64,000 bases of DNA from assembly GCA_032718475.1 (NCBI GenBank), contig JAUCBJ010009103.1, positions 248,001-312,000 of the forward strand. Reading direction: 5' to 3'. Shown here piece by piece: positions 9,736 to 64,000 of this stretch (within the stretch, counting starts at the first letter, position 1; each line of letters opens with the position of its first letter). A program made the translations under genes and the position numbers. The notes under the pieces were generated by a model. The model was not told where the DNA came from, searched no databases, and saw nothing but the letters and a program-made list of their open reading frames with translations. The stretch comes from Nemertoderma westbladi. Lineage: Eukaryota; Animalia; Xenacoelomorpha.

Positions 9736-9739
9736 ACGC

Positions 9740-12729: not shown

Positions 12730-12789
12730 TCAGGTCTTAAATGAGAGTCTTACAAATTCGAACGTCAACGAACAAATTCGACGGTTACT

Positions 12790-12863
12790 GTTCCACCTTG
12801 GTGTAGTGGTTGCATTGAATTCACATCGCCCGTATGTCATGGGTTCGATCCCTGCATGAACCA
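12790..12863 (+). pseudogene. tRNA-derived sequence (SINE head or pseudo-tRNA), right arm
   Basis: GTTCCACCTTGGTGTAGTGGTT...GGGTTCGATCCCTGCATGAACCA with Pol III A and B boxes at tRNA-like spacing. Confidence 0.6.
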
Positions 12864-13289
12864 GGGCAGTTTTCGTTCGGTCAGCAATAGGCCTAACGCA
12901 AAATGCAGTATTATTGCCTAGCAACCAATTCATGGCTACCATATGGTTTTCACTTTGAGACATTTCGCCCTCTAGCGGCAGACTGGGGAACTTCAGACTA
13001 CTCTGTGACTCTGCAAAAAAGATAGCCCATATTGTAATAGATACCGATTGGGGGGTCAAAATTAAGTAATAATTTATCTAAATAAGCCTCAAACATCTTG
13101 CCTCATGGCTCGCCCCTTAGAACTCTTAAGCAATATAACTTCATAGTTTTGCGGATTGTAAACAACAAAGCTAGAGAAGATGTTAATAATATTTTTCAGA
13201 CATGCTCCCATGGGCATGACAGGTTGTCTGTCATGCTTATAATGGCCATTGGTGAGACATCCGCTACTGGGTGTGGGTTCGCAGGGGAT

Positions 13290-19296: not shown

Positions 19297-19440
19297 GGGA
19301 CGACTGGACGCAATAAAAATTCATCCCTCTCCAGGGAAAATTCGACGCAAATAACAGCTGATTATTCTCAAAAATAAAACTGTAACCTGTTCTATTGTAG
19401 ATAAGCTTTAAGCATTGTAAATAAGCTTTCTCTTAGTGCA

Positions 19441-35553: not shown

Positions 35554-35674
35554 GATGATTGTTTTTGATGGAAATATTGGCTGCGGTAAATCGACAATAG
35601 CGAAGGAAGTTGCCCAAAAGTACGGGTTGAAATACTACCCAGAGCCTGATCTCTACTACTGGGAAAGGAGGCAG
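35554..35674 (+). CDS. NDUFA10: NDUFA10 exon 2 (complex I 42-kDa subunit, dNK-fold P-loop)
   Basis: tttag|G acceptor. MIVFDGNIGCGKSTIAKEVAQKYGLKYYPEPDLYY resembles NDUFA10 VITVDGNI-x2-GK-x2-AKEIAEKLG-x-K-x-FPE. Donor CAG|GTTAGT at 35675. Remaining exons lie beyond the window. Confidence 0.85.
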
Positions 35675-44600: not shown

Positions 44601-45250
44601 AGGCAGGTTAGTTGGGCAAAAGTAGGGGTTGAAATACTACCCAGATCCAAATCTGTGCTACTGGGAAAGGAGGTAGGTTAGTTGGGCAAAAGTAGGGGTT
44701 GAAATACTACCCAGATCCAAATCTGTACTACTGAGAAAGGAGGCAGGTTAGTTGGGCAAAAGTAGGGGTTGAAATACTACCCAGATCCAGATCTCTACTA
44801 CTGGGAAAGGAAACAGGTTAGTTGGGCAAAAGTAGGGGTTGAAATACTACTCAGATCCAAATCTGTACTACTGGGAAAGGAGGCACGTTAGTTGGGCAAA
44901 AGTAGGGGTTGAAATACTACCCAGATCCAAATCTGTACTACTGGGAAAGGAGGTAGGTTAGTTGGGCAAAAGTAGGGGTTGAAATACTACCCAGATCCAA
45001 ATCTGTACTACTGAGAAAGGAGGCAGGTTAGTTGGGCAAAAGTAGGGGTTGAAATACTACCCAGATCCAGATCTCTACTACTGGGAAAGGAGGCAGGTTA
45101 GTTGGGCAAAAGTAGGGGTTGAAATACTACCCAGATCCAAATCTGTGCTACCGGTACTGGGAAAGGAGGCAGGTTAGTTGGGCAAAAGTAGGGGTTGAAA
45201 TACTACCCAGATCCAGATCTGGGAAAGTTGGCAGGTTAGTTGGGCAAAAG
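35608..45250 (+). repeat. 70-bp exon-derived satellite, left block (~138 units)
   Basis: Unit AGTTGGGCAAAAGTAGGGGTTGAAATACTACCCAGATCCAAATCTGTACTACTGGGAAAGGAGGCAGGTT, with 62- and 76-bp variants. The first unit is the exon itself. Confidence 0.98.
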
Positions 45251-45797
45251 TGTTAGCTTATTCAATCCCGCTAACACCCCATAAAAGTTAAGCCGATAAG
45301 CAATATTGGGGGCCACGAGATTGGGTAATCACCAACTCGTGTCACCCCAATAAAATGGAAAGGAGAAACACAATGAGGGTCAGGGGCCAAACCCCTAACC
45401 CAGAGAGAACAGGTGGAGTGAACGGGAACACTCCAAAGGGCGCCAACAAGGGTATCAACCAATCAGAGGGGGGAAAGGCATCGATTAGGTAGAGTAACAA
45501 GGCCAACCCGTGCAATATAGCCAGTTGGCAGTAATCATTTCATTCAGTTATCTCAGTATCATATTGGTGCTAGTTAGGTTAGTTAGTTTAGCTAGGGAAG
45601 GACCGAGACTTTAATTACCGTATCCCGCCTTCCGTATACGACAACATTATCCATATCTATGCTTATATCTATATACCCGTACAACCGATTATTATATACG
45701 ACGAACGACACGAACTCTTTTTACCTTTCATACACACGGCGGGGACGCGTGAACTAAACAACCGGATAAACCGGGATCCTTCCTGGATCCCGTCACA
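45251..45797 (+). repeat. 5' LTR (547 bp)
   Basis: TGTTAGC...CGTCACA. Two substitutions noticed relative to the 3' LTR. Confidence 0.98.
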
Positions 45798-45895
45798 GTA
45801 ATTAAATCCGTCGGTGGCACAGTAATTAAAACTCAGAGCTGCCGCCCTAGCTAGCTAAACCCAGCGACTACCAGCCACCAATCGAACCAACCGAG

Positions 45896-48800
45896 ATGAG
45901 TCAGTCGGGAGAGACGACGCCGACGCGGACCCCGGACGAAGAATTAACGATCCGCGAGGCCGCAACCAGGCGGTACAGGCCCACAACGCCGGACCCATCG
46001 GTAACGGGTCATCCGGCAGCTCAGGATGAGGGGGGCCGCCTGGAACCCGAGGTCGAGCCGAGAGAAGGAGAGAGCGAGACGGAGGGAGACAGAGACGAGT
46101 CGACACGAGACGCGGGTCGACGTACTGATGTCGCCGGCCAGCCACAGGCCGAAGGCGACGAGCGGCCCACCGAAACGGCGACGGTGGGGCTGACGGTACG
46201 ACGCCGGACCCGAAGAGACGGAGGAGATGTCGGTACCGATGTCGCCGGCCAGCCACAGGCCGAGGGCGACGAGCAGCCCACCGAAACGGCGACGGTGGGG
46301 CCGACGGTACGACGCCGGACCCGGAGAGATGGAAGAGAGGTCGGCGACGAGGATGTCGGGGTTTCTGATCGACTTCGACGGGCCTACAACGCGACCCGGA
46401 GACTATTAGAGGAGGCCAGAGGAGGGGCGACGATAGACAAGGTAAAACTAAAGAAAGGACTAGGTGAGTCGAATAGACACTTTTATTATCTAATGCGCTT
46501 CGGGCAAAGAGAACTGGCCAAGGAGAGAGCGAGAGGGGTTGCCGAGGAACTGTATGACTTATGGCGGTATAGGGGTATGGAACCTAGCGTAGTGTACGTA
46601 GGGCCGTACTTAGTCGATGCCCGGGGAGTAAAATTAGTGGGTTGGGAGAGACCTGAGGAGGACGAATCCGAGGTTAACCCCGAGGATTCGGCCTCGTCGG
46701 TCGGAGGAAGTTCCGGGAGGCGGGGGAAAGTCAGTAGGTCGGGAAGGCGGAGGGAGTCCGTTACAACCGATAAGTCTGCTACATCCTCCGTAAAAGAAAG
46801 ACGGGTGAGAGAGATAAATGCCACGTACCGTCTCGATTTAATAGAGCGAGGTCAAAGGGAAGTAGGTAGACGGTTAGAGGAGGGGAGAGTGCTGTTAGAG
46901 AGGGAAATGGCGTTGATTAAGGAAACCGGAGAGAGGGCCGAAAGGGCCGCGAGAAGCCTTAGGGAGTGTGAGGAAGTAGGGAGGAAGGAACAAGAAGAGC
47001 GCGAGGCGAGAGAGAAAAATGAGCGCAAAGAGCGTGAGGCGGAACGTAGGGAACGTGAGGCGAAAGAGGAAAACGAGTGCAAAGAGCGCGAGGAGAGAGA
47101 GGAAAACGAGCGCAGAGAGCGTGAGGCGAGACAAAGGGAGGGGGCTAGAAGAGAGTTGGAATTGGCCGAACGGGACGCACGGGAGTGTAAGGAGAGAATG
47201 GCAAGGAAGGAGTGTGAGCAAAAGGAACTAGAGAAACGTCAAGGTGAGCTTACAGGGTACAAAGCTATACACACGCGCGAACGGGAATTGGCACGAATAG
47301 GGGCGTCTGAGAGTGGGGCTAGCTCGAGTATTTTCGAGGAGCCAGGGGCCGTGGATACATTTATTAATACCCCACTTACAGGGACCGCACGACAGACCCA
47401 AGACTGGTGTGACCGTACGGGCGGGGGGGGGGGGGGGGGGGGTAATAATAATGCTATAGTAGACGTCATTAATATTAATAGTACCGTATTGGATAACCCT
47501 AATCCTTTTATTGCAGCAAATAATACTTTACCTAGTAGCAGTGATTTAAATTTAAATACAAATAATAATTTCAATTTAAATGTGCAAAATAATCCGAATA
47601 ATAATTTAAATTTAGAAAACAATAATAATTCAAATAATTTAAGTAATGATCCAAGCCCGAATTTACAAAATAATTCAAATGATTTTGGTTCAAACGAACA
47701 AATTAATTCCGTTTCCAATGTGGGTGCTATTAACGTGAACACGTCGGGCGTGTATGGCCAGGCAGATGGGGGCCTGGTAGGCCATATAATTGGTAGGCCG
47801 GAAGTGGCGGGATTGAGCCAACCCAGAGAGGGCCTGGTAGGCCACGTAGTTGGTAGGCAGGGAGCGGCTGGGTTGGGTAGACCCAGTGAGGGCCTGGTAG
47901 GCCACGTAGTTGATAGGCAGGGAGTGGCTGGGTTGGGTAGACCCAGCGAGGGCCTGGTAGGCCACGTAGTTGGTAGGCAGGGGGTAGAGGGCCTGGTAGG
48001 CCACGCAATAGCAGAGGGAGAGGCGGGGGTGAATAGACCCGACCGCGGTAGGGTTGACGTGTCGACGAGAGAGGGATGTGGTAGCGGGATGAGAGATAGC
48101 GAAGTTAGATGTGGCGAGTGGGGGGGGGCTACAAGAGCCCCACAACAGCGAGTTAGCGGCGAAAGGGGGGGGGGGGCAGAGAGTGCTCCGCAGCCGTCAG
48201 CGGATAATGCGCGGGCCGAAATAGGTAAACCGCAACACCCGGCGACGGAGAGTAATAGGGGGATTGCGAGTATCCCCAACGGCGTGCGACCGAGCAGAGA
48301 GAGACAGGTTGACGTCGTGAGAGGGCGGACGAAGCGTCGAGCCCGATCAGAAGAGGGAAGAAGAACAGTGGGGTTTAACCGGGAGGTCGACGAGAGATCT
48401 CACGAGCGGGAATACTACACTGAAAGGAGAAGAAGAGAAGACAGTAGTAAAAGTATCGCCGCGAATGATAGAAGAGCGAGGACGGATAGCGAGCCGTCGG
48501 TAGTCGAGATGAGAACGGAGAGTCAGTGGGGTCGGACTCCGGGAGATTGCCGTCGCACCGGAGAGATGCGACCTGGTGAGGTGCATTACGCGCCGATGGA
48601 GGGGTACGCGATATACCGGTACGAAGATGAGAACAGTAGAGAGGGGGGGTCGAAGAGAAACTTTCCGACGGAATATACCTACCAATCGAGAGTACGGTAG
48701 CCACGGGGAGGACTATTTGAGAAGAATAAACTTCGATCCCGAGCGACACATGCAGACTGTAGGACATACTGTAGGCCTTACTGCACATACCATAGGCCAT

Positions 48801-49055
48801 ACTGAGAGAGGCAATGTAGGCGATAGGATAGCGCGGACAACAGGATTAAACCCGGAAGTCGCGGAATACATACCGGCGAGTAGGCCAGAAGCTGATAGGC
48901 CTATACCGGTACCAGCACAGCAGTATGACTACAGCATGCAGGGACATAACATATACCCAGGGGAGGGGGGAATTATTGCGGATAGGTGTATGGGCCCCAA
49001 TATATTAACATCAACCCCAGTACCAAACATACCGGTGGGGGGGGGGACAGGGTGA
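45896..49055 (+). CDS. Long N-terminal part of gag (disordered, coiled-coil, Asn-rich, internal repeats), frameshifted
   Basis: ORFs 45896..48700 and 48576..49055 overlap across G-runs. Features include a 120-bp duplication at ~46125-46325, an E/R coiled coil and GLVGHVVGRQG repeats. Confidence 0.75.
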
Positions 49056-51126
49056 CATTCCCCCATCACAATATCAACAATATACCCCGATAGGAGCAAG
49101 AACAACGAGACCCTTGGATGAAAATAGGTCGTGTGACACAGAACTATGGAGGGGGCCACTACCCCCGATGACATACCCAAGTCAAAGAAAATCAAGAAAT
49201 AGGACGGACGAACCGCGCCAGACAGGAGAAACTATACAGCACCCATCGAATCCATTGGAAGCGCAGGCGATGGGGATGGCCACGTTGATCGATGCGTTGA
49301 AAACGAGGATCGAGTTACCACCCGTGGAACCATTCAAGTTCGATGGGAGTAGGCCGGAAGAATATCTACAGTTTCGGCGCATGTATAGTAACGAAATACT
49401 AACAAAAAACTTGACGCAGGCGGAGTGCCTAAAGTATCTGCAAGTATACACGGGAGGCCCAGCATACGATATCGTGAGGCAATATCAAGGAATAGAGGGC
49501 GGCTTCACGACAGCATGGCGGGCACTGGACAGGGAATACGGGCACCCGGCCAAGATCATCAGACAGACACTGAGAGGCATAACATCGGGTGGCCTACAGG
49601 ATAATCCCGTTAGCATTAAGACGTTCGCTAACAAAGTCGAAAAGGCGCTAATCGTGCTGAAGACGCTAGACGCGCCATACGAGCTCAACGCGTCCAATAA
49701 CATCACCACGATAGCGCAGGCACTACCGAACTGGCTGCGCAACAAGTGGAGGAAGATCGCTTTCTCCATTCGAGACAAGAAGGGTGCGGAACCGGGTTTA
49801 GAAGAAATGTCAAGCTTCTTAAACTACGAGGCTGAACTAATAACTGACCCAGTCTATAGCGAAGATAGCCTGGGAAAGGGACCGAAGACGGATTACCATA
49901 GACCGAAACCAGAGCACAATACATCAAACGCATTACCGAGGCTCAGGCAATCATTGCCATATGCAGCGACGCAGGGGACTGCAAGTCCACAGCTAGCCGA
50001 AGATAAGACAACACCATGGAACGGACAGGGAAACAATAACAACACGAATAAATATAACCCCAGTACGTCCAGTAGGCCGAATCCAAACAATAAGAATAGT
50101 AGGGACTTTGGTACAAACGCAGCTGCGATACGCAATGCGCTGTATAAGGAGGGCTACGACCCAAAGAGCAAATGCCAGCTACACGCAAATGCGCTTCATC
50201 AAACCATGAACTGCAGGTACTGGCAGGCGCTACCTAGGCAAGATCAGATAGATTATGCGTTGAGCAATAAAATCTGCTCGCGATGTGTGATGAGTGGACA
50301 TAGAGCAAGGGAATGCAAGGAGAAGCCGGTCAAGTTTGGTCAAAGGAGAGGCCAAACGATGGCGACGAGCACAGTAGGGGCGAAGAAGAGAGGAACGGTG
50401 TTACTTGGAGTAGTACCCGTGCGAGTGATTGGGGAAGGCAATCGATCAGTAACAACACTAATGCTGGTTGATAGTGGAGCTGCCTTCACATTAGTCGAGG
50501 AATGGGTGGCCGAAGAGATAGGATTGAGAACGAGGCCAAGCAGAATGGCGGTAACAACCATCTCTAGCAAAGATGAGATCCTGGAGATGAGAACAGGACG
50601 GTGCGCAATTGCAGCAGTGGCACCGGGATGCGACTATGGGGCAACCATCGACCCCATCCAAGTGATAGAGTCAATTAATATCAATGCCAGGCGGCCAACC
50701 AACATCGAGGTCGAGCAATATAAATTCCTGGACGACATTGACTTCTCAATCCCAGACGTGGACGTTAGGAAGGTATCCATCATAGTAGGAATGGATTGCC
50801 CAACGGCCCACGAAAGAATGCAAACGGTCTTCGGCGAAGACAAGCAGTGTGACCCGGTGGCGATATTAACACCATTCGGGTGGACGCTGAGTGGCCCAAT
50901 CAAGACCAAGATACCATTTAGGATGTCGGAGACATCAGGATGCATGTTCGCGGGAACAATGCAGGAAATGGGTGATGAGGGAGCAGAGGAGCAGCTTAAA
51001 AGACTGCTCAGACAAGATTTCGAGGGACTGAAAGAGACCGGGGTCAGGACCTCGGTAGAAGACAAGCAGGCTTTACAAAGCGTGGAGGAATCGATGACAG
51101 TGCGACTGAGGGGCGGTATACTATAG
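49009..51126 (+). CDS. BEL/Pao gag core (DUF1759-like), zinc knuckles and aspartic protease
   Basis: PFKFDGSRPEEYLQF, AWRALDREYG, LPNWLRNKW, CQLH...HQTMNC, CSRCVMSGHRAREC, LVDSGA and TPFGWTLSG. Frame is open from ~49009. Confidence 0.92.
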   Translation, partial: HQPQYQTYRWGGGQGDIPPSQYQQYTPIGARTTRPLDENRSCDTELWRGPLPPMTYPSQRKSRNRTDEPRQTGETIQHPSNPLEAQAMGMATLIDALKTRIELPPVEPFKFDGSRPEEYLQFRRMYSNEILTKNLTQAECLKYLQVYTGGPAYDIVRQYQGIEGGFTTAWRALDREYGHPAKIIRQTLRGITSGGLQDNPVSIKTFANKVEKALIVLKTLDAPYELNASNNITTIAQALPNWLRNKWRKIAFSIRDKKGAEPGLEEMSSFLNYEAELITDPVYSEDSLGKGPKTDYHRPKPEHNTSNALPRLRQSLPYAATQGTASPQLAEDKTTPWNGQGNNNNTNKYNPSTSSRPNPNNKNSRDFGTNAAAIRNALYKEGYDPKSKCQLHANALHQTMNCRYWQALPRQDQIDYALSNKICSRCVMSGHRARECKEKPVKFGQRRGQTMATSTVGAKKRGTVLLGVVPVRVIGEGNRSVTTLMLVDSGAAFTLVEEWVAEEIGLRTRPSRMAVTTISSKDEILEMRTGRCAIAAVAPGCDYGATIDPIQVIESININARRPTNIEVEQYKFLDDIDFSIPDVDVRKVSIIVGMDCPTAHERMQTVFGEDKQCDPVAILTPFGWTLSGPIKTKIPFRMSETSGCMFAGTMQEMGDEGAEEQLKRLLRQDFEGLKETGVRTSVEDKQALQSVEESMTVRLRGGIL

Positions 51127-54100
51127 GAATGGTATGGAAATTACCGAAGATACCACTGCCCGATAATAGAGGGATGGTACTCACGAGACTCCGCAAGCTG
51201 AAACAAACACTAAAACGGAGCCCCGAGAAGAATGAGTACATCCACAGAACGATTAAGAAGTACGTCGAGAAAGGATGGGCCGTGGAGTTACCGGTCGACG
51301 AACCGAACACGGACAGGACATATTACCTGCCACTCCACGTGGCTTTAGACCCAAAGAAAGGTAAACTGCGGATGGTAGTTGACGCATCGGCAAAGACCAA
51401 CGGAAAATGCTTAAACGACTACCTGTTAGAAGGCCCAAACATATACAACTCGGGCATAGAGGTGCTACTTAGATTTAGAAATGGGAAACACGCCTTCACG
51501 TGTGACATAGAAGGCATGTTCAACCAAGTCCGTGTAACGGAGGAAGATAGCGACAGTCAACGCTTCTTATGGTATAACGGCGAGGAAGAACCGTCGATAA
51601 TACCGGCATATAAGATGGTAGTACAAAACATGGGAGCCAAGTCGTCTTCATTTACGACGACTATGGCAGTGAGAGATACAGTGAAAGGGAAGGAAGATAG
51701 ATACAGCACTAGGGCCGTCGATATGATTCGACACGGCTTCTACGTAGACGACGGAATGGAGTCTGGAAATACGGTTAAGGAGATACTGGACACGGGGCGC
51801 GAGGTTCGCGACATCCTAAAAAGATCCGGCTTTAACCTGACCAAATTCCAATCCAGTTCGGAAGAATTTATCAAGGCGATAGAGGACAAGAGGCCAGAAT
51901 CGACCATGGATAATCCCACAACAGCCAAAGGGCAGGACATGGCGAATAAGAGAACAGAATCTCAACAGAAGGCATTGGGAATCGTGTGGAACAGAGAGAC
52001 AGACGAACTGAAGTATCAGCTGAGCCAGGAGGGCGCAGACATCCACACGAAGAGGGGCTATGTATCGTATATAGCAAGGATATACGATCCCCTAGGCCTA
52101 GCATCCCCATTATTAGTCACGGGGAAACAGATACTCAAGAGAGTATACAAATTGAAGGATGAGTGGGACGTAGAGGTACCAGAGGAAATCAAGAAACAGT
52201 GGAGTAAGTGGACAGGAGACTTGGAGAAGATGGGAACATACAACATGCCACGAGTGTATTTCCCGGATGGGAACATGACGAATCTGGACCTACACATGTT
52301 CTCCGATGCGTCGTTGGAGGCGTACGGAGCGGCACTCTACTTAGTACAACGAGAGGGGGCTCATAAGCCCAGACTAGCCTTTAGCAAAGCAAAGTCAACG
52401 CCGCCAGATTCAGCATCAGTCCCCAAGTTAGAATTGACAGCTGCGAGACTAGGAGTTAGAGCCACAGCCTACCTAGTGGATACTATTCCCAACATAGTGG
52501 AGACACACTACTGGACGGACTCCATGGTAGTGCTTGGTTGGCTACATAACGAAAGGACGAGATACCCAATATTCGTCGCAAATAGAGTGGACGAAATAAG
52601 GGCGACCACAGAACTGGAAAGGTGGCACTACTGCCCAACGGACGAGAACCCAGCGGACTTGTTGTCGAGGGGCGTGGTACGCCACACTTTCTTGATGAAG
52701 GAAGTATTGTGGCAACATGGGCCACAATTTCTGAGCGATAAGGAGGCCTGGCCGCCGATGAGAAAGGTGGACCCGGGCTCAGAAGTAGTGTCAGAGGGAG
52801 AAGAGGGAGATTCAGAGGGAGAAGAGATATACTCCCAGATGGTGAGGGAGATTAGGGACGTGCAACCAAGACGAGAACTGTGCGATAACCCGACGGATAA
52901 ACTCCTCAGCTACAGTTCTAGTTGGTATAAGACCAAGAAACTAGTGGCGTACTGGAGAGCCTTCGGGAATTTCCTCGCGGGAGTTGGCAAAGACAAGATC
53001 AGGACATCCATAGATCTGGAAGGAGCGGCCAAGGCAGTCATCCGCTATGAACAACGGAAGAACTATGGCGACGAGGTAGAACGCGTCGGAAACCAACAGC
53101 ACCTCCGACGGGACAGCGAGCTGATCACGCTGTCGCCACAACTTAATGACGACGGGATTCTAGTAATGAATTCTAGGGTGGGATACAACAACAGCATAAT
53201 CGTACCACCGAAACCCATCATCATTCCAACAGGATCGCCAATAGTTCACCAGATTATCTGGGACTCCCATAAGTCGATATTGCACGGGGGCACCAACCAA
53301 ACCCTCACCGAGATAAGGTGGACCTTTTGGGTCAAACAGTTGAGGAAGAAGGTAAAAGCGGTGGTGGGGCAGTGCCAGACCTGCCGACGAGCGAAGAAGG
53401 AGCGAGCCATACAAGAGATGGCGCCACTACCAGCGAGTAGAGTAAGACAGCACGACCCGCCATTTACGCATTGCGGTGTGGACATGTTCGGGCCAATAAA
53501 GATCAAGGTGATGCGGCACACGGAGAAGCGCTACGGTATAATCTTCGTATGTAACAACACGCGGGCGGTAGGGATAGAACTCGCCCAAGATGCAACCGCA
53601 TCAGCATTCATTAATGCCTTAGAAAGGTTTAGAGAACGCAAAGGTGGGACGATCGCAGTGATATACAGCGACAACGGCACCAACTTTGTGGGCGCACAGA
53701 ATGAGATGGCAGAAGCCTTGGACATCTTGGAAGGGGAGGAAGTCAGGGCGGCCATGAGACAACGACAAGTAAAGTGGGAAAGAAGGACGCCGTATGCACC
53801 ACATACACTAGGATGCGTCGAGAGACTGGTGGGCAGTTCAAAGCGTCTAATGACGAAGCTAATGAACACCCACATGGTCACTGAGGACGTCCTGAGAACA
53901 GTATTGGCGAAGTGTGAGGGTATCATTAATAGCAGACCGCTATATCCGGAGAATGATGACCCTGAGTCACTAGACGTGCTGACGCCTAGCCATTTTCTAA
54001 TGGAAAGGCCAGCTACCATCGATATGCGGGGTGTAGATCCAGACGACATACACTCCCGCCAGAGTTGGAAAGTCGCTAAAGCAATAAGCGCCGAGTATTG

Positions 54101-54377
54101 GAGGAGGTGGGTCGAAGAATACCTGCCCACGCTCCATAAAAGAAGCAAGTGGAGGAAGCCGAATAGGGAGTTAAGAGAGGGAGATCTCGTAATCGTTACG
54201 GATGATACTATCATCAACAACCAATGGCGGTTGGCGAGAGTTGTAGGCACTTACTCCGACAAGGACGGAAGAGTCCGATCGGTAGAAGTGCGGATAGGTG
54301 GTAAGATAGGTGCGAAGGACAGAAAAACCTACAGGAGAGCTGTAGGGAAATGCTGTCTGTTAGAAGGGGCACCTTAG
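51100..54377 (+). CDS. BEL/Pao pol: reverse transcriptase, RNase H (Peptidase_A17-like), integrase, DUF5641-like tail
   Basis: YYLPLH, LRMVVDAS, CDIEGMF, FYVDDG, HMFSDAS, WTDSMV, ENPADLLSRG, H..HGG..CQTC, GVDMFGP, SDNGTNF, ERLV, NSRPL, LTPSHFL. Frame begins GRYTIGMVW upstream of the listed ATG. Confidence 0.97.
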
Positions 54378-54534
54378 TGGAGTTAGAGAAGAGTTTAGTC
54401 GTCCAAGCTTTGGACTGAGGGGGGTGGGATTGAGGGCGAGACGCCCTTCCCACACATAAAAAGTAAAATAAAAAATAAAAATAAAATAATAGTACATAGT
54501 AGGTATGCAGTTAGTAGGCAGAAGTTAGTCAGTA

Positions 54535-55062
54535 AGAAGGTACGTAGTACCTAGAGTTAGTTAGTTAAGAGGTACGTAGTACCTAGAGTTAGTTAGTTAA
54601 GAGGTACGTAGTACCTAGAGTTAGTTAGTTAAGAGGTACGTAGTACCTAGAGTTAGTTAGTTAAGAGGTACGTAGTACCTAGAGTTAGTTAGTTAAGAGG
54701 TACGTAGTACCTAGAGTTAGTTAGTTAGTTAGGAGGTACGTAGTACCGCTAGTTAGGAGAGAGTTAGAAGGTACGTAGTACCGTTAGTTAGAGAAGAGTT
54801 AGAGGGTACGTAGTACCGTTAGTTAGAGAGTTAGAGGGTACGTAGTACCGTTAGTTAGAGAAGAGTTAGAGGGTACGTAGTACCGTTAGTTAGAGAGTTA
54901 GAGGGTACGTAGTACCGTTAGTTAGAGAAGAGTTAGAGGGTACATAGTACCGTTAGTTAGAGAGTTAGAGGGTACGTAGTACCGCTAGTTAGAGAGTTAG
55001 AGGGTACGTAGTACCGTTAGTTAGAGAAGAGTTAGAGGGTACGTAGTACCGTTAGTTAGAGA
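54535..55062 (+). repeat. 32-37-bp tandem repeat between pol and ORF3
   Basis: About 15 copies of GAGGTACGTAGTACCTAGAGTTAGTTAGTTAA or GAGGGTACGTAGTACCGTTAGTTAGA(GAA)GAGTTA. Confidence 0.95.
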
Positions 55063-55567
55063 GAGAGAGAGTAAGAGGTAGAAGGGTATATAAGATATAG
55101 ATATTAGTTAGCAGTTAGTAGCGAGAGGGGGGCATATGAGTACAGTTGGGTAAATCGTGTGGCCACGCGACGCACACTGCTGTACTGCACAGGCCCACAG
55201 AGTAGGCCAGAATGTGGATTAGAGAATAGAATAATCCATAGGCAATAGTAAGTAGTAGGACAGTAGAATTAAAATTATACTAAAAATAAATAGATATATA
55301 AAAATAAATAGAATAGGGCTGAAAGTTACAAATTATGGCAACACTAGGAAAGTTATTCTGGAACATAATAAAAGTAACGGACAGAAATCGAAATTAGGGT
55401 GTATTTACTAGCTTCAGAATTAATTAGTAATAATTTAGGCTAAAAGGGCGCAGTTAAGTAAGGAATAGGCCATTATCGGACCGTACAGAACATCTTAAGA
55501 TACATCACTCATCTGTATTGCGCCTTGGTAAGGCACCACCTTACAGGTGAGCGAGTGAGTGTTCGGA

Positions 55568-58105
55568 ATGGCGAGCAAATTGATCAGAAAGAGAAAGGCG
55601 GAGTTAGGAGGAAAGGAGATACTGGTGGATTTCACCGAGAGGCATCCGGAAGAGAAGACGAGAGGATACTACGAGAGGTTGGAAAGGGGTCACGCGGCAC
55701 GAGCGCTGCAGGATCACTTCCGGGAGATGCACGAACAGCGGCTGGTCGGGACGCCGTCGCTGGACAACGCGATCTTCCAACACTTCCACTACGTGGTGAA
55801 AGGGGACGAGGCGAAGTTCGGGATTCGGAAGTACCCGAGGGAATCACCGAGGAAGGACTGGAAGAGATTCATAGAGTCCGTCAACAGGGGAGGATATATG
55901 ATCCTAGACGACGAGGGAACCGTGGAAGACGAGGCGGGTTCGAGACGAGGATCGGCGGGGTCGGCCAGGACCATACTCCTACATTTGGCCGCGCCAAATG
56001 GGGACATCTTCTTATTCGATCTAGGAACGTATGGGAAGAAGGACGGGCCGAAATTAAACCGGTTGCCGAAAGCGGTACAAGTCTTGGTAAGAGAGAAGTC
56101 GACGACGAAAGTAGGATCGGCGATTCGCGAGGATGCGGAGAGAATCATCGGTCCGGACGCCACCAACCTCCTGGATATGCAGAAGGTCTTTATGGCTATG
56201 ACGGCACCGGATGGGTTGGGGGTAGTCGAAAACACAGGCCAATGCGGGGCGGTGGCAATGGGCCAACTATTGGGGCTCGTGTGCCACAAACCGATGGACT
56301 GGGGGAAGTTCAGGGAAGAATACGGAGCAGAACTAGCGAACTCGCTAAAGTGGGGAGCGAGACCGGGAAAGCAAGAGGTATATCAATTCCGCAGAGGAGC
56401 GATAAAGGTATATCAGAAGCGATATATCCTGCAGGAAGACTGGATGATGATAAGTTTGCTTAACTTATTTATGACCGTGGTTATCGAGAGGGAACCAGCG
56501 GCATTTCTGTTATCGGGATCACCCCTAAGCTACAGGAGAGCCTTTAAAATGGCCTTCGACGGTCTGGTAGACCACCCGGGGCTGAAGGGCGAGTCGGTGT
56601 ACTACAACAGCCGACATCTGGAAGACGGGGAGACAGATACGCCGTATCAGAGATGGGAGCAGCTAGAAACGGATAGACGAGAAGCAAAGCGACTGGAAGA
56701 AGTCGCTAGACGGGAGAGGATAGAAGCAGAGGAGAGGGAGGAGGAGGCCAGGACGCAGAGTTACGGCTTCGAGGAACAGGCAGGCTTAGACGAACTTCAT
56801 TGGACTTCGTCAGGGAGTTCGGGGGAGTCTCTAGGGCGAGAACTGGGATGGACGGTGGGATCACCGAAACAGTCGACGTCGGGGTTGCAAGAGATGCCCA
56901 TACCAGCGGGCGCCGAAGGCGACCAACCGCCAAGGAAGTTAAGGGAACTAGAGGGATGGAGAGCTACGGGCGAGAGCCAAGGCGGGAAGGGACATAGTGG
57001 ATCCATCGGGATACCGGGGTTGGAGCCACTGCCAGAGGAGGAGGAGGACGACGACGAGTTCGGAGGGGTGCCGCCCATCGAGAGGATTGGCCACTCGGAC
57101 ACGGACTGGGTTGGCGGGAGGGTGGTGACGGCCAGTGGGGCGAGGGCCTTCTGGAACAGATCCGGCAAGCAGACCTGGGTGCACGAGGAGCCGGCGATGG
57201 ATTTCGCGGGGAGCACTATCAGGTTGGGCGAGCAACCGGGGACGGCACCACGGATAGTATTCGGGGAGACGATGCCCGAGAGGGGCGGAGAGATCGACGT
57301 AGACAGGGACACCAACGTGGAGAAGTTCGCCTACCAGCGACTCCACAGACCGCGGAGATCGCTTGGGACGAAAGACGACGTGGGGCGGGAGACATTGGTA
57401 CTCGGTTGCGACTACTGTGGGAGACAGACCCACCAGGAAAGGAGCTGCTTGTACCGGTTCCAAAAGGGAACCTTTTGTCTCTACTGCCGAGAGCCGAGCC
57501 ACAGGATGGGGGCGTGTCCACGGTTGCATAACCGATGTCCAAAGTGCAACTTTCGGGGACACTACGGACGCCAGTGCGACTGGATGGACGACGAAGAGAA
57601 GTTCAGAAGATTCGAGGAGTGGGCCGACGTCGGGGCCATGACGCGCCAGCGCATGAAGGCCCAGGAGTTTAAGTGGGGTTTCTTCCTTATCAATCAGGAG
57701 GCTCACATGGAAATCATAAAGCGGAGGCTACCGTTTACCTATCAAGAGGTAGCAACGGCGGCGTCGTATGCCGGAGTGATGAACACACAAAGATATTTGG
57801 ACAGGTGGACGCCACAGAACCGAGGGGAGTTTAGGGATTTCTTGGCGGAGCACGTGCCGCGAGCAATGAAGATGATCCTATGGGACGCCACCAGATGGAG
57901 ACAACAGGGCCACTCTGAGGGGCCACTGGCGAAGCGATATCGGGCACTAATAACACCAGCGCCCAAGGAGCCAACAACCGGAATCAGCAGGGAGGTGGCG
58001 GCGAAAGTCCGAAAGCAGAAAGCGGATCCCAGAGGAGCGGTGGTAACCAAGAAACGACCCAGGGAAGAGGACGCCAGGGGGAACTATCCCCAGAGGAACA
58101 GATAG
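55568..58105 (+). CDS. Accessory ORF3: DEDDy 3'-5' exonuclease domain plus three CCHC zinc knuckles
   Basis: Intact ~845 aa from the ATG at 55568. ExoI ILDDEG, LLHLAAPNGDIFLFDL, LPKAVQVLVREKSTTKVGSAIRED (ExoII), LLDMQ and ExoIII-like QKRYILQED. Zinc knuckles CDYCGRQTHQERSC, CLYCREPSHRMGAC and CPKCNFRGHYGRQC. Confidence 0.85.
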   Translation: MASKLIRKRKAELGGKEILVDFTERHPEEKTRGYYERLERGHAARALQDHFREMHEQRLVGTPSLDNAIFQHFHYVVKGDEAKFGIRKYPRESPRKDWKRFIESVNRGGYMILDDEGTVEDEAGSRRGSAGSARTILLHLAAPNGDIFLFDLGTYGKKDGPKLNRLPKAVQVLVREKSTTKVGSAIREDAERIIGPDATNLLDMQKVFMAMTAPDGLGVVENTGQCGAVAMGQLLGLVCHKPMDWGKFREEYGAELANSLKWGARPGKQEVYQFRRGAIKVYQKRYILQEDWMMISLLNLFMTVVIEREPAAFLLSGSPLSYRRAFKMAFDGLVDHPGLKGESVYYNSRHLEDGETDTPYQRWEQLETDRREAKRLEEVARRERIEAEEREEEARTQSYGFEEQAGLDELHWTSSGSSGESLGRELGWTVGSPKQSTSGLQEMPIPAGAEGDQPPRKLRELEGWRATGESQGGKGHSGSIGIPGLEPLPEEEEDDDEFGGVPPIERIGHSDTDWVGGRVVTASGARAFWNRSGKQTWVHEEPAMDFAGSTIRLGEQPGTAPRIVFGETMPERGGEIDVDRDTNVEKFAYQRLHRPRRSLGTKDDVGRETLVLGCDYCGRQTHQERSCLYRFQKGTFCLYCREPSHRMGACPRLHNRCPKCNFRGHYGRQCDWMDDEEKFRRFEEWADVGAMTRQRMKAQEFKWGFFLINQEAHMEIIKRRLPFTYQEVATAASYAGVMNTQRYLDRWTPQNRGEFRDFLAEHVPRAMKMILWDATRWRQQGHSEGPLAKRYRALITPAPKEPTTGISREVAAKVRKQKADPRGAVVTKKRPREEDARGNYPQRNR

Positions 58106-58813
58106 GTTCCCAGGGCCGGGGGAGAGAAACTGAGACTTGGACGTGGTACGCCTGGAAGGCGCCGCGTGGGACGTACGAACTATTAAGTACAAATTAAGCT
58201 GATGCAAATAATTAAATAAGTGCAATTATATGTACGTACGTAGTGATCAGTAGTTTAGCAATAAAATATACGTTCGGAGTAAGTACTATAGTCATACAAC
58301 CTTTCTCAATTAGCTACTGGGACTGGGGGGATAACTGACTATGGCACTATGGACGAGACACCAGACGATTTCACACTTCTTGAGTGCGACGGCACAAGAG
58401 GGGGGGGGGGGAGATTCGTCAGAAGGGATGAGGTAGTCGAAGTGGGGTTGAGGGACGGAGTAATAGTGCGAAGTGCGGAGAGAGTGCGGACGCAATTCTA
58501 GTGTGGGGGGGGGGGGGAGAATAAGAGGCTGAGTGAGGGACGAGGAGGTCCGAGGGTATGAGAGAGTTAGGGTGAGAGTGGAGAAGAGATAGGGCGAAAG
58601 TGTTGGGGAAACAAAAGTCGCGTGAGAGGTGAGCGCGATCGGCCCGACATGGGACGCCAGGCATACAGGGTAGCGTTATCATACCCATAGGGAGCGGCCT
58701 GGAAAGCCGGCTCCGAGAGAAAATAATTCCACCCCACACCCGATACTAGATCGGGATCCAGCGGGATTGTAGCGCACTTAAGGTGGATGCTATCTTCTCA
58801 CCGGGAAGATAGC

Positions 58814-58824
58814 ATGGGGGGGAG
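58814..58824 (+). promoter_or_regulatory. Polypurine tract
   Basis: ATGGGGGGGAG directly abutting the 3' LTR. Confidence 0.85.
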
Positions 58825-59371
58825 TGTTAGCTTATTCAATCCCGCTAACACCCCATAAAAGTTAAGCCGATAAGCAATATTGGGGGCCACGAGATTGGGT
58901 AATCACCAACTCGTGTCACCCCAATAAAATGGAAAGGAGAAACACAATGAGGGTCAGGGGCCAAACCCCTAACCCAGAGAGAACAGGTGGAGTGAACGGG
59001 AACACTCCAAAGGGCGCCAACAAGGGTATCAACCAATCAGAGGGGGGAAAGGCATCGATTAGGTAGAGTCACAAGGCCAACCCGTGCAATATAGCCAGTT
59101 GGCAGTAATCATTTCATTCAGTTATCTCAGTATCATATTGGTGCTAGTTAGGTTAGTTAGTTTAGCTAGGGAAGGACCGGGACTTTAATTACCGTATCCC
59201 GCCTTCCGTATACGACAACATTATCCATATCTATGCTTATATCTATATACCCGTACAACCGATTATTATATACGACGAACGACACGAACTCTTTTTACCT
59301 TTCATACACACGGCGGGGACGCGTGAACTAAACAACCGGATAAACCGGGATCCTTCCTGGATCCCGTCACA
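58825..59371 (+). repeat. 3' LTR (547 bp)
   Basis: Near-identical to 45251-45797. Confidence 0.98.
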
Positions 59372-62300
59372 AAAAGTACGGGTTGAAATACTACCCAGAT
59401 CCAAATCTGTACTACTGAGAAAGGAGGCAGGTTAGTTGGGCAAAAGTAGGGGTTGAAATACTACCCAGATCCAGATCTGGGAAAGTTGGCAGGTTAGTTG
59501 GGCAAAAGTACGGGTTGAAATACTACCCAGATCCAAATCTGTACTACTGGGAAAGGAGGCAGGTTAGTTGGGCAAAAGTAGGGGTTGAAATACAACCCAG
59601 ATCCAAATCTGTGCTACTGGGAAAGGAGGCAGGTTAGTTGGGCAAAAGTAGGGGTTGAAATACTACCCAGATCCAAATCTGTACTACTGGGAAAGGAGGC
59701 AGGTTAGTTGGGCAAAAGTAGGGGTTGAAATACTACCCAGATCCAAATCTGTACTACTGGGAAAGGAGGCAGGTTAGTTGGGCAAAAGTAGGGGTTGAAA
59801 TACTACCCAGATTCAAATCTGTACTACTGGGAAAGGAGGCAGGTTAGTTGGGCAAAAGTAGGGGTTGAAATACTACCCAGATCCAGATCTGGGAAAGTTG
59901 GCAGGTTAGTTGGGCAAAAGTACGGGTTGAAATACTACCCAGATCCAAATCTGTACTACTGGGAAAGGAGGCAGCTTAGTTGGGCAAAAGTAGGGATTGA
60001 AATACTACTCAGATCCAAATCTGTACTACTGGGAAAGGAGTCACGTTAGTTGGGCAAAAGTAGGGGTTGAAATGCTACCCAGATCCATATCTGTACTACT
60101 GGGGAAGGAGGCAGGTTAGATGGGCAAAAGTAGGGGTTGAAATACTACCCAGATCCAAATCTGTACTACTGAGAAAGGAGGCACGTTAGTTGGGCAAAAG
60201 TAGGGGTTGAAATACTACCCAGATCCAAATCTGTACTACTGGGAAAGGAGGTAGGTTGTTGGGCAAAAGTAGGGGTTGAAATACTACCCAGATCCAAATC
60301 TGTACTACTGAGAAAGGAGGCAGGTTAGTTGGGCAAAAGTAGGGGTTGAAATACTACCCAGATCCAGATCTCTACTACTGGGAAAGGAGGCAGGTTAGTT
60401 GGGCAAAAGTAGGGGTTGAAATACTACCCAGATCCAAATCTGTACTACTGGGAAAGGAGGCAGGTTAGTTGGGCAAAAGTAGGGGTTGAAATACTACCCA
60501 GATCCAGATCTGGGAAAGTTGGCAGGTTAGTTGGGCAAAAGTACGGGTTGAAATACTACCCAGATCCAAATCTGTACTACTGGGAAAGGAGGCAGGTTGG
60601 TTGGGCAAAAGTAGGGGTTGAAATACAACCCAGATCCAAATCTGTGCTACTGGGAAAGGAGGCAGGTTAGTTGGGCAAAAGTAGGGGTTGAAATACTACC
60701 CAGATCCAAATCTGTACTACTGGGAAAGGAGGCAGGTTAGTTGGGCAAAAGTAGGGGTTGAAATACTACCCAGATCCAAATCTGTGCTACTGGGAAAGGA
60801 GGCAGGTTAGTTGGGCAAAAGTAGGGGTTGAAATACTATCCAGATCTGGGAAAGTTGGCAGGTTAGTTGGGCAAAAGTACGGGTTGAAATACTACCCAGA
60901 TCCAAATCTGTACTACTGGGAAAGGAGGCAGGTTAGTTGGGCAAAAGTTGGGGTTGAAATACTACCCAGATCCACATCTGTGCTACTGGGAAAGGAGGCA
61001 GGTTAGTTGGGCAAAAGTAGGGGTTGAAATACTACCCAGATCCAGATCTGGGAAAGTTGGCAGGTTAGTTGGGCAAAAGTACGGGTTGAAATACTACCCA
61101 GATCCAAATCTGTACTACTGGGAAAGGAGGCAGGTTAGTTGGGCAAAAGTAGGGGTTGAACTACTACCCAGATCCAGATCTGTACTAACTACTGGGAATG
61201 GAGGCAGGTTAGTTGGGCAAAAGTAGGGGTTGAAATACTACCCAGATCCTAATCTGTACTACTGGGAAAAGAGGCAGGTTAGTTGGGTAAAAGTAGGGGT
61301 TGAAATACTACCCAGACCCAAATCTGTACTACTGGGAAAGGAGGCAGGTTTGTTGGGCAAAAGTAGGGGTTGAAATACTACCCAGATCCAAATCTGTACT
61401 ACTGGGAAAGGAGGCAGGTTAGTTGGGTAAAAGTAGGGGTTGAAATACTACCCAGATCCAAATCTGTACTACTGGGAAAGGAGGCAGGTTAGTTGGGCAA
61501 AAGTAGGGGTTGAAATGCTACCCAGACCAAGATCTGTACTACTGGGAAAGGAGGCAGCTTTGGCAAAAGTAGGGGTTGAAATGCTACCCAGATCCAGATC
61601 TGTACTACTGGGAAATACAAATAAGGCAGGTTAGTTGGGCAAAAGTAGGGGTTGAAATACTACCCAGATCCAGATCTCTACTACTGGGAAAGGAGGCAGG
61701 TTAGTTGGGCAAAAGTAGGGGTTGAAATACTACCCAGATCCAAATCTGTACTACTGGGAAAGGAGGCAGGTTAGTTGGGCAAAAGTAGGGGTTGAAATAC
61801 TACCCAGATCCAGATCTGGGAAAGTTGGCAGGTTAGTTGGGCAAAAGTACGGGTTGAAATACTACCCAGATCCAAATCTGTACTACTGGGAAAGGAGGCA
61901 GGTTGGTTGGGCAAAAGTAGGGGTTGAAATACAACCCAGATCCAAATCTGTGCTACTGGGAAAGGAGGCAGGTTAGTTGGGCAAAAGTAGGGGTTGAAAT
62001 ACTACCCAGATCCAAATCTGTACTACTGGGAAAGGAGGCAGGTTAGTTGGGCAAAAGTAGGGGTTGAAATACTACCCAGATCCAAATCTGTGCTACTGGG
62101 AAAGGAGGCAGGTTAGTTGGGCAAAAGTAGGGGTTGAAATACTACCCAGATCCAGATCTGGGAAAGTTGGCAGGTTAGTTGGGCAAAAGTACGGGTTGAA
62201 ATACTACCCAGATCCAAATCTGTACTACTGGGAAAGGAGGCAGGTTAGTTGGGCAAAAGTTGGGGTTGAAATACTACCCAGATCCACATCTGTGCTACTG

Positions 62301-64000
62301 GGAAAGGAGGCAGGTTAGTTGGGCAAAAGTAGGGGTTGAAATACTACCCAGATCCAGATCTGGGAAAGTTGGCAGGTTAGTTGGGCAAAAGTACGGGTTG
62401 AAATACTACCCAGATCCAAATCTGTACTACTGGGAAAGGAGGCAGGTTAGTTGGGCAAAAGTAGGGGTTGAAATACTACCCAGATCCAGATCTGTACTAA
62501 CTACTGGGAATGGAGGCAGGTTAGTTGGGCAAAAGTAGGGGTTGAAATACTACCCAGATCCTAATCTGTACTACTGGGAAAAGAGGCAGGTTAGTTGGGT
62601 AAAAGTAGGGGTTGAAATACTACCCAGACCCAAATCTGTACTACTGGGAAAGGAGGCAGGTTTGTTGGGCAAAAGTAGGGGTTGAAATACTACCCAGATC
62701 CAAATCTGTACTACTGGGAAAGGAGGCAGGTTAGTTGGGTAAAAGTAGGGGTTGAAATACTACCCAGATCCAAATCTGTACTACTGGGAAAGGAGGCAGG
62801 TTAGTTGGGCAAAAGTAGGGGTTGAAATGCTACCCAGACCAAGATCTGTACTACTGGGAAAGGAGGCAGCTTTGGCAAAAGTAGGGGTTGAAATGCTACC
62901 CAGATCCAGATCTGTACTACTGGGAAAGGAGGCAGGTTAGTTGGGCAAAAGTAGGGGTTGAAATACTACCCAGATCCAGATCTGGGAAAGTTGGCAGGTT
63001 AGTTGGGCAAAAGTACGGGTTGAAATACTACCCAGATCCAAATCTGTACTACTGGGAAAGGAGGCAGGTTGGTTGGGCAAAAGTAGGGGTTGAAATACAA
63101 CCCAGATCCAAATCTGTGCTACTGGGAAAGGAGGCAGGTTAGTTGGGCAAAAGTAGGGGTTGAAATACTACCCAGATCCAAATCTGTACTACTGGGAAAG
63201 GAGGCAGGTTAGTTGGGCAAAAGTAGGGGTTGAAATACTACCCAGATCCAAATCTGTGCTACTGGGAAAGGAGGCAGGTTAGTTGGGCAAAAGTAGGGGT
63301 TGAAATACTACCCAGATCCAGATCTGGGAAAGTTGGCAGGTTAGTTGGGCAAAAGTACGGGTTGAAATACTACCCAGATCCAAATCTGTACTACTGGGAA
63401 AGGAGGCAGGTTAGTTGGGCAAAAGTTGGGGTTGAAATACTACCCAGATCCACATCTGTGCTACTGGGAAAGGAGGCAGGTTAGTTGGGCAAAAGTAGGG
63501 GTTGAAATACTACCCAGATCCAGATCTGGGAAAGTTGGCAGGTTAGTTGGGCAAAAGTACGGGTTGAAATACTACCCAGATCCAAATCTGTACTACTGGG
63601 AAAGGAGGCAGGTTAGTTGGGCAAAAGTAGGGGTTGAAATACTACCCAGATCCAGATCTGTACTAACTACTGGGAATGGAGGCAGGTTAGTTGGGCAAAA
63701 GTAGGGGTTGAAATACTACCCAGATCCTAATCTGTACTACTGGGAAAAGAGGCAGGTTAGTTGGGTAAAAGTAGGGGTTGAAATACTACCCAGACCCAAA
63801 TCTGTACTACTGGGAAAGGAGGCAGGTTTGTTGGGCAAAAGTAGGGGTTGAAATACTACCCAGATCCAAATCTGTACTACTGGGAAAGGAGGCAGGTTAG
63901 TTGGGTAAAAGTAGGGGTTGAAATACTACCCAGATCCAAATCTGTACTACTGGGAAAGGAGGCAGGTTAGTTGGGCAAAAGTAGGGGTTGAAATGCTACC
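59372..64000 (+). repeat. 70-bp exon-derived satellite, right block (~66 units, runs off the window)
   Basis: Same unit resumes exactly after the TSD (AAAAG-TACGGGTTG). Higher-order periods of 1166 and 1312 bp. Confidence 0.98.

Follow-up and report, generated by a model that had tools for sequence, protein, structure and literature searches.

What is an enzyme-like gene doing between pol and the 3′ LTR of a BEL/Pao retrotransposon, in the position of env? The gene, ORF3, lies in a 64,000-nucleotide stretch of the Nemertoderma westbladi genome (GenBank assembly GCA_032718475.1, contig JAUCBJ010009103.1, positions 248,001 to 312,000 of the forward strand), here called the window, whose own coordinates are used throughout. 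The original prediction, made from the sequence alone, read ORF3 as a DEDDy exonuclease fused to three zinc knuckles and suggested that it counters small-RNA silencing, trims a primer or proofreads. As described below, ORF3 is a member of a gene family that is common to many diverged BEL/Pao elements, that sits after pol and that co-diverges with the reverse transcriptase (RT).

The carrier is a young BEL/Pao insertion

The element is a young BEL/Pao insertion in a 70-bp satellite array (35608–45221, resuming at 59372–64000), and all of its features are on the forward strand. Its 547-bp LTRs (45251–45797, with TG...CA ends, and 58825–59371) show two differences, and the insertion is bounded by a 5-bp target-site duplication, with AAAAG at 45246–45250 and the identical five bases at 59372–59376. 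The gag-pol coding region falls into four frame segments: a low-complexity segment of 949 aa, stop to stop, without any Pfam hit (45851–48700); a 180-aa segment in another frame, which probably belongs here by its position (48513–49055); a segment with DUF1759 (PF03564, 4e-11), a gag zinc knuckle and an aspartic protease (PF13650, 2e-5) at 49009–51126; and pol itself (51000–54377), with RT, a Pao peptidase/RNase H region, integrase and DUF5641 (PF05380, 1.5e-40; PF18701, 7e-24; PF17921, 7e-11). The protease–RT–RNase H–integrase order and the Pao-type domains (PF05380, PF18701, PF03564), together with the LTRs and the duplication, bear out the proposed BEL/Pao identity.

The region in which a primer-binding site is expected (45798–45830) has no LTR-adjacent TGG, the first TGG being at +18 after the 5′ LTR. 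It does carry two copies of GTAATTAAA, complementary to LTR positions 45610–45618, and a match of this kind arose in 33 of 5000 LTR shuffles. A polypurine tract is present at 58816–58824. The interval between pol and ORF3 holds a tandem array with a 32-bp period and about 16 copies (54531–55067), and a candidate splice acceptor (...CTTACAG, 55535–55546) lies 21 nt 5′ of the ORF3 ATG.

ORF3 encodes a predicted exonuclease, a linker, three knuckles and a helical module

ORF3 (55568–58105, 845 aa) runs uninterrupted between the pol stop at 54377 and the 3′ LTR at 58825, as had been predicted. Its parts are a predicted DEDDy/EXD2-like 3′–5′ exonuclease domain (aa 95–313, 55850–56506), an acidic, Gly/Pro-rich linker that is predicted to be disordered (aa 399–608, 56762–57391, pLDDT below 50), three CX2CX4HX4C zinc knuckles (aa 614–627, 637–650 and 657–670, 57407–57577) and, 3′ of these, a conserved helical module (FE..AD.G..T....WGFF, 57590–57805) that has no Pfam name and is modelled with pLDDT blocks of 76–97. 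The motifs follow one another in the order originally claimed, with LDDEG at aa 113–117, LHLA at 138–141, FLFDL at 148–152, KVG..I.ED at 181–189, LDMQ at 202–205 and YILQED at 286–291. The acidic linker (21% D+E over aa 350–600) and the knuckles are likewise as described; the knuckles match Gag nucleocapsid weakly, and 11 of their 12 ligand positions are invariant across 32 aligned rows.

One catalytic residue had to be reassigned. Over 31 aligned rows the columns of D114, E116 and D189 hold D in 21, E in 23 and D in 22, respectively, and the Exo III acid column (D in 17, E in 9) aligns with E290, not with D291 as would be needed for an aspartate as fourth acid. By this alignment the window copy is DEDEy, with the set D114 (55907–55909), E116 (55913–55915), D189 (56132–56134), Y286 (56423–56425) and E290 (56435–56437), and with glutamate in the Exo III position it may be less active.

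The exonuclease call rests on a family profile and on the fold, because Pfam and NCBIfam, run on ORF3 and its parts, did not recognise the domain; PF01612 matched 2 of 44 homologues, each slightly below the curated cut-off. A profile of nine homologues that excluded the query matches ORF3 aa 95–313 at E 1e-28. The A1 profile matches EXD2 (1.4e-11, over Exo I–II), Trypanosoma brucei RNase D (TbRND; 8.6e-6, with both domains aligned), Egalitarian (2.8e-4) and WRN (0.014), and an exonuclease-only profile from the window and 42 loci matches EXD2 at 5e-11. An AlphaFold model superimposes on the Nibbler EXO domain (Z 14.3, rmsd 3.9, 205 aa), WRN (Z 12.9, rmsd 3.2, 177 aa) and TbRND (Z 12.6, rmsd 3.9, 208 aa); the best Foldseek match is TbRND, and matches in BFVD are generic DEDDy exonucleases from giant viruses and phage polymerases. 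Single-sequence AlphaFold of ORF3 reached a pLDDT of only 32. Word-index protein searches with the whole of ORF3 and with its exonuclease part gave no matches, a protein search with alignment A2 recovered 16 family members and no cellular protein, and a cluster look-up of ten homologues gave no named protein. Atlas leads for homologue P0005 were all below 0.9, the first being a Euglenozoan PF01612+zf-CCHC cluster at 0.86. The profile and structural matches agree with the original DEDDy assignment, and the domain is predicted to have a DnaQ/RNase H-like fold. We are close to certain of the identity of ORF3 and of the existence of its family, and consider it probable that the window protein is active as a nuclease.

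DEDDy folds act on DNA as well, as in WRN and Pol I, and the fold itself says nothing about substrate. The best structural matches are mixed, comprising RNA transport (Egalitarian), DNA enzymes and small-RNA factors. We nonetheless consider RNA, rather than DNA, to be very probably the substrate.

The original statement that ORF3 is not env also holds. Its peak 19-residue hydropathy is 1.35 and falls within the Exo III helix, its N-terminus is basic, and hydropathy exceeds 1.9 in just 1 of 28 relatives. That ORF3 is a diverged envelope protein has its genomic position and nothing else in its favour, is refuted by the exonuclease fold, and has a negligible probability.

A family that diverges with its carriers

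Metagenome loci were found by their knuckle motif, so that persistence of the knuckles is in part by construction; counts refer to the matches listed, comprising 80 loci with flanks, and L081–L120, which have no flanks, are excluded from every locus count. Among these matches an exonuclease lies upstream of the knuckles in 62 of 80 loci, BEL-like gag-pol is present in 34 of the 40 loci with more than 1.5 kb upstream, and PF05380 was found in all 14 scanned pol ORFs. The six loci of the 40 that have no pol are three with long upstream reading frames and L008, L012 and L032. L071 was rejected as a chance knuckle match inside an H+-pyrophosphatase gene. Both modules occur in 33 of 41 homologues of at least 440 aa, nine being profile seeds that match by construction, and the stretch that separates Exo II from Exo III contains inserts peculiar to the family (GlG..., d.KP, lY.W). 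Viral contigs were searched by protein, by the knuckle pattern and by a BEL RNase H pattern, and none of the three recovered a relative.

Trees were built for the 22 elements with both RT and exonuclease. ORF3 and RT distances are correlated (Mantel r 0.86, n = 22 elements among the matches listed), a signal driven by clusters. The RT of the window element is 26–33% identical to the others and sits on a very long branch, and the deep branches of the tree are without resolution. Alignment A2 omits six of the 48 loci with a full exonuclease (L003, L022, L034, L039, L041 and L074).

Intact and dead forms, and selection

The original prediction overlooked this widespread family and the variety within it: judged by their residues, ORF3 proteins come in intact, DEED, DEDh-like, dead and exonuclease-less forms. 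Among the 49 full domains in the matches listed (loci plus the window), the four acids are kept in 28, with exact DEDyD in 20 and DEEyD in three; the window copy is the sole DEDyE, and Exo I acids are missing in 18. Ten elements without Exo I acids fall on one side of a branch supported at 98/95 in the RT tree and 100/100 in the exonuclease tree of the 22 elements. L047 and L059 keep the knuckles and have no detectable exonuclease. A TGG[C/T]GCC primer site near the 5′ end or the gag start is common to intact and dead lineages: a pattern search located it in 16 of 17 relatives, and in the 17th it is visible by eye.

Sister copies of ORF3 are under purifying selection. Of 65 variable sites in the exonuclease, 40 are listed and 34 of these are silent, giving a pN/pS of 0.05–0.08, or 0.27–0.40 if the 25 unlisted sites are all scored as missense. 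Among the listed sites, the four catalytic-acid codons have only silent third-position variants, and no indel reaches 5% among sister copies of the exonuclease. An overlapping ORF in the +1 frame (55462–56463) was rejected, since that frame would make 39 of the 40 variants non-silent. The catalytically dead pair L033/L039 has a dN of 0.079 and a dS of 0.78. The conservation foreseen for sister copies and relatives was thus found, with neither absence of the ORF nor neutral decay. ORF3 had also been set against gag-pol as unbroken against frameshifted; the four frame segments are real, but the contrast carries little weight when just 2 of the 547 LTR positions differ.

Possible functions

Since a dead RT lineage keeps its exonuclease domain under selection, RNA binding is likely to be the core function of ORF3. 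We suggest, with confidence just short of an even chance, that ORF3 is a selected accessory gene, combining a predicted exonuclease, a linker and knuckles, whose product would act as an RNA-binding counter-silencing factor. That counter-silencing is its main role we hold a little more tentatively. More speculative still is the fuller picture, in which an old BEL/Pao branch has its own silencing suppressor, an EXD2/Nibbler-like exoribonuclease with a knuckle clamp that would degrade piRNA/siRNA precursors; it is equally speculative that this suppressor has diversified alongside RT, giving active (DEDDy, DEED, DEDh-like, DEDEy), dead-decoy and knuckle-only forms. ORF3 would be expressed in the manner of env, via a spliced subgenomic RNA, and the knuckles and helical module would grip single-stranded RNA and feed its 3′ end into a two-metal active site, a step proposed by analogy with the zinc fingers of TbRND. 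The targets would be the small silencing RNAs of the host, or unmethylated precursors of these, which intact forms such as the window copy might trim and dead forms might only bind and sequester.

The persistence of dead and exonuclease-less forms would also suit a cis-acting RNP factor, a second nucleocapsid-like adaptor for the element's own RNA. Such a role agrees with the env position, with the nucleocapsid-type CCHC knuckles and their weak Gag matches, and with the Egalitarian matches by profile and fold, which include a structure whose title names bound I-factor RNA. Gag already has a knuckle of its own, however, no Egalitarian-type N-terminal or motor-binding part was recognised, and 28 of the 49 domains in the matches listed keep four acids at 26–50% RT identity, which an adaptor would not need. 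We regard this role as rather unlikely, as we do its elaborations, that the genomic RNA is bound, protected, packaged or, in the manner of Egalitarian, transported by ORF3, possibly to the germ line as a substitute for env, and that trimming of 3′ tails is secondary and dispensable.

A helper of reverse transcription, acting in cDNA proofreading, in RNA removal from RNA:DNA hybrids or in trimming of a tRNA primer, would fit a DEDDy class that includes proofreading domains, the Pol I and WRN matches, the large size of the elements (about 10–14 kb, against 4.2–10 kb in PMC8742986) and the atypical primer site of the window copy. These roles, two of which had been proposed originally, are weakened because the dead lineage (10 of 22 elements) is under selection and the TGG[C/T]GCC site is the same in intact and dead relatives; ORF3 is moreover a separate ORF outside Pol, and we consider a helper improbable. 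Nibbler and Exd1 are among the closest folds, and Rodriguez et al. (PMC5408684, in the portion available) raised a Mut-7-like role, so ORF3 might instead promote a self-limiting silencing through Mut-7/Nibbler/Exd1-like piRNA maturation, or be passive host-gene cargo. A passive passenger, or a gene that holds back the element carrying it, would not be expected to be retained for long by purifying selection across many diverged families or to co-diverge with RT, and this explanation seems more improbable still.

In ORF3, many BEL/Pao families hold an enzyme-derived accessory gene that is invisible to Pfam and is selected even after the loss of catalysis. It offers an expressible candidate for asking if the transposons of animals make their own suppressors of piRNA/siRNA silencing, with natural active, dead and exonuclease-less versions as built-in controls, and its knuckle array and helical module provide an annotation marker for an unrecognised group of elements. 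If the suppressor reading is true, which we put well below an even chance, ORF3 would be a transposon equivalent of viral silencing suppressors, made from a host piRNA-pathway fold.

Comparison with known systems

An exonuclease accessory gene has a precedent in rotifer LTR elements, and the literature searches found none for BEL/Pao. The carriers differ, being the gypsy-like Juno and Vesta families in rotifers and BEL/Pao here. Nematode Cer elements may also carry an exonuclease. Searches of the literature, in which the slash spelling ‘BEL/Pao’ is unsearchable, returned no report of a BEL/Pao exonuclease.

The rotifer precedent named in the original prediction was located in Juno, Vesta and Terminon/Athena of bdelloids, whose ORF3 is of DEDDy type (Rodriguez et al., 2017, PMC5408684); according to the available part of that paper, exonucleases were previously unreported in retrotransposons. 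The rotifer protein resembles that of the window in being enzymatic, in its env position and in having no transmembrane segment or coiled coil, and a change from DEDD to DEED is noted there, as DEEyD is seen here. A triple-CCHC fusion, a conserved C-terminal module and a dead lineage are not described in that part of the text, and the rotifer gene is given as recently acquired, whereas the BEL/Pao ORF3 co-diverges with RT over deep distances. The same source reports that DEDDy ORFs have no clear link to copy number and that the rotifer ORF3s are still covered by small RNAs.

Third genes of BEL/Pao elements are described only as env-like in the available text of PMC8742986 and PMC3118150. The phlebovirus-like env of Belpaoviridae, as in nematode Cer/Atlas (PMC9094657 and PMC8742986, as far as available), is likewise a third gene 3′ of pol; unlike it, ORF3 is not a glycoprotein, lacks a membrane segment and is predicted to have an enzyme fold.

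EXD2 (PDB 6k17), Nibbler/Mut-7, the WRN exonuclease, Exd1 and Egalitarian share the predicted fold of ORF3 and have no CCHC array, and EXD2, its best sequence-profile match, aligns over the Exo I–II half only. Exd1, described as catalytically inactive (PMC5408684, available part), resembles the dead lineage in this respect. A comparable architecture is that of TbRND (PDB 7c42/7c45), which also joins a 3′–5′ exonuclease to a C-terminal CCHC array; in the accessible text of PMC7797062, four knuckles follow a 28-residue linker, the enzyme trims U-tailed guide RNAs, and the CCHC domain strongly increases RNA binding and cleavage. ORF3 differs in having three knuckles, a linker of about 300 residues, a helical module of its own and 17–18% identity, and so lacks what marks a TbRND-type protein, namely four CCHC fingers directly after the exonuclease and the high identity seen among trypanosomatids. 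The architecture shared by ORF3 and TbRND is likely to be convergent.

The carrier element and its third gene

The window contains a 14.1-kb element bounded by a 5-bp duplication (AAAAG), with two 547-bp LTRs (45251–45797 and 58825–59371) that have TG...CA ends and show 2 differences in a self-comparison of the window; a purine tract lies before the 3′ LTR. Because its coding region holds DUF1759, protease, RT, PF05380 (1.5e-40), integrase and DUF5641 domains, the element is assigned to BEL/Pao, as originally predicted. Gag-pol lies in four frame segments, the breaks being either the copy's own or assembly errors; 11 related loci have a single gag-pol frame of 2000–2400 aa. ORF3 (55568–58105) is an unbroken frame of 845 aa, in which every DEDDy motif named in the original prediction was found together with the three CX2CX4HX4C knuckles (starting at aa 614, 637 and 657), and the claimed lack of a transmembrane segment agrees with a maximum 19-residue hydropathy of 1.35.

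A 70-bp satellite array encloses the element (35608–45221, about 138 copies, on the left side, and 59372–64000), and a 32-bp tandem array (54531–55067), differing in length among copies, lies between pol and ORF3. Elsewhere in the window are a 345-aa minus-strand ORF (3998–5035), which we take from its motifs to be transposase-like, between 213-bp inverted repeats in what is likely an intact Tc1/mariner element (3428–5335); nested inverted repeats (11700–13200; arms up to 229 nt, 97%, short-repeat core) that suggest a MITE-like or palindromic structure; an intronless ribosomal protein L35 ORF (16777–17193) whose best PDB matches are animal, which marks the host as an animal; and fragments (19405–20472 and 9653–10450) that by eye resemble ORFs of a non-LTR endonuclease and of another retroelement.

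Identity of the exonuclease

The Pfam search proposed with the original prediction named no exonuclease in the window ORF3, nor did NCBIfam. A phmmer search with ORF3 against 1.84 billion representatives gave 80 matches, the best stretch always being the knuckle region. A profile of the N-terminal parts of 9 of these, the query left out, matched ORF3 at aa 95–313 (E 1e-28), and the domain is present in 33 of the 41 matches of at least 440 aa (9 of them by construction). In the columns of a 31-row alignment, D114 reads D in 21 rows, E116 E in 23, D189 D in 22 and Y286 Y in 26; since the column of E290 reads D 17/E 9, the Exo III acid is E290 and not the Asp first proposed (D291). A 32-row profile matched EXD2 (1.4e-11), Trypanosoma brucei RNase D (TbRND; 8.6e-6), Egalitarian (2.8e-4) and WRN (0.014), and an exonuclease-only profile (window plus 42 loci) matched EXD2 at 5e-11. 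The AlphaFold model made with the family alignment (prediction without it failed) has confident parts at about aa 91–340 and 611–760, with aa 399–608 disordered between them; its exonuclease part is predicted to take the expected fold of Nibbler (EXO, Z 14.3, rmsd 3.9, 205 aa), WRN (Z 12.9) and RNase D (Z 12.6), and the top Foldseek match is TbRND. On family evidence, ORF3 is classed as a DEDDy-type exonuclease.

Spread through BEL/Pao

Searched as a DNA pattern, the knuckle array has one match in the window and none in 100 shuffles; in metagenomes it matched at least 120 loci, 80 of them with flanks. Relatives of ORF3 do exist: among the matches listed, 62 of the 80 flanked loci have an exonuclease ahead of the knuckles, 49 of them in one shared frame. 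Upstream sequence exceeds 1.5 kb in 40 of the listed loci, of which 32 match the window pol on the same strand and two others match gag-pol of relatives; PF05380 is present in all 14 pol frames scanned among the related loci listed, and in one locus (L023) both LTRs enclose pol and ORF3. ORF3 is a BEL/Pao-wide gene, lying after BEL/Pao pol. Across 22 elements with both domains (19 clusters at 80% RT identity), RT identity is 26–86% and exonuclease identity 10–89%, and the two sets of distances are correlated (Spearman 0.86, p 0.0005); the sample is biased to the knuckle motif and these metagenomes and cannot tell one capture from several. BEL/Pao control elements lacking ORF3 were searched for among viral contigs and none was found there.

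No pol was seen ahead of the gene in a divergent exonuclease-knuckle subgroup (L008, L016, L032, L072; E 3e-9 to 2e-14), which could represent another carrier or a host gene. In four loci (L005, L051, L043, L015) the ORF3 frame is extended far at its N-terminus, reaching 1300–1600 aa, and has no Pfam match; L005 also has a second long ORF that overlaps this one in a different frame. A direct-repeat-flanked stretch (L022:5187–10931) with gag and integrase-end remnants and an ORF3 split by a stop probably arose from an element by internal deletion.

Intact, dead and truncated forms

The 49 full exonuclease domains among the matches listed comprise 21 DEDy[D/E], 4 DEDhD, 3 DEEyD, 3 partial and 18 without Exo I acids (dead, as opposed to intact). 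In both trees, a single branch (98/95 for RT, 100/100 for the exonuclease) separates the ten dead elements included from the rest; the window element sits unplaced on a very long branch. For the exonuclease domain, a dead pair (L033/L039) has dN 0.079 against dS 0.78 and intact pairs among L026/L028/L046 have dN 0.07–0.13 against dS 0.67–1.19; the picture is less clear for two pairs that are further apart (pN/pS 0.66 for the intact one, 0.61 for the dead one). In two further BEL/Pao ORF3s with the knuckle/helical module (L047, 3341–6529; L059, 6880–9648), no exonuclease was detectable.

Six sequencing runs, none recorded as RNA, contain part of the stretch; for three DNA runs the contigs reach every one of the element's 30 bins and carry many variants. 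Over 603 exonuclease bases (1413 and 914 contigs), no indel reached 5% among the surveyed contigs. Of the best 40 of 65 variant sites, those listed, 32 are third-position and 34 silent, including all listed variants in the four catalytic-acid codons; the resulting pN/pS of 0.05–0.08, pooled over all the copies and individuals behind the contigs, is the purifying pattern for which a dN/dS check had been suggested, and it becomes 0.27–0.40 (p ≤ 2e-4) when all 25 unlisted sites are scored missense. Low-depth DNA-run contigs joined across 56889–57862 and 57573–58129 are deletion derivatives without the knuckles or C-terminus.

A TGG[C/T]GCC site is common to intact and dead lineages and was found by pattern in 16 of 17 relatives. 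In the window copy, the sequence adjoining the 5′ LTR (45798–45830) lacks the customary TGG primer site; GTAATTAAA is present there twice and is complementary to nine LTR bases (45610–45618; 33/5000 shuffles). Tf1 is a self-priming retroelement, and by analogy the window element may possibly prime itself; this LTR stretch may not be the transcript 5′ end, because TATA-like boxes lie downstream of it.

Proposed function

ORF3 would be made from spliced RNA (candidate acceptor at 55546), its knuckle module would grip RNA, and a two-metal active site would then shorten that RNA in the 3′ to 5′ direction. In the available text of PMC7797062, the CCHC domain of TbRND raises RNA binding and cleavage; the knuckle-assisted grip and trimming proposed for ORF3 is carried over from TbRND by analogy.

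RNA binding is likely the core function, judging from sequence, because one lineage dispenses with catalysis yet keeps the fold. Such a core fits a suppressor of silencing, which would degrade or sequester small RNAs, a role on the original list that we hold tentatively; it also fits an adaptor that would serve the RNA of the element itself, which we consider somewhat less likely. Proofreading or primer trimming, also originally listed, fits poorly with a dead lineage that is kept, and is improbable.

Relation to known elements

Third genes of BEL/Pao are only env-like in the ICTV profile (PMC8742986) and in the accessible part of a survey in which 'exonuclease' has 0 occurrences (PMC3118150), and the nematode env is phlebovirus-like in the text available (PMC9094657). 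In openly accessible article text, supplements and the Repbase and GyDB collections aside, we found no BEL/Pao exonuclease, which does not prove that none is in print. The precedent cited in the original prediction holds: DEDDy ORF3s are known in rotifer Juno/Vesta elements and Terminons, as described in the portions available of PMC5408684 and PMC5718144, the former noting no earlier report of one in a retrotransposon. The exonuclease-knuckle ORF3 in BEL/Pao is real, and the rotifer elements, known already, have a DEDDy-type third ORF in common with it, the carrier here being BEL/Pao.
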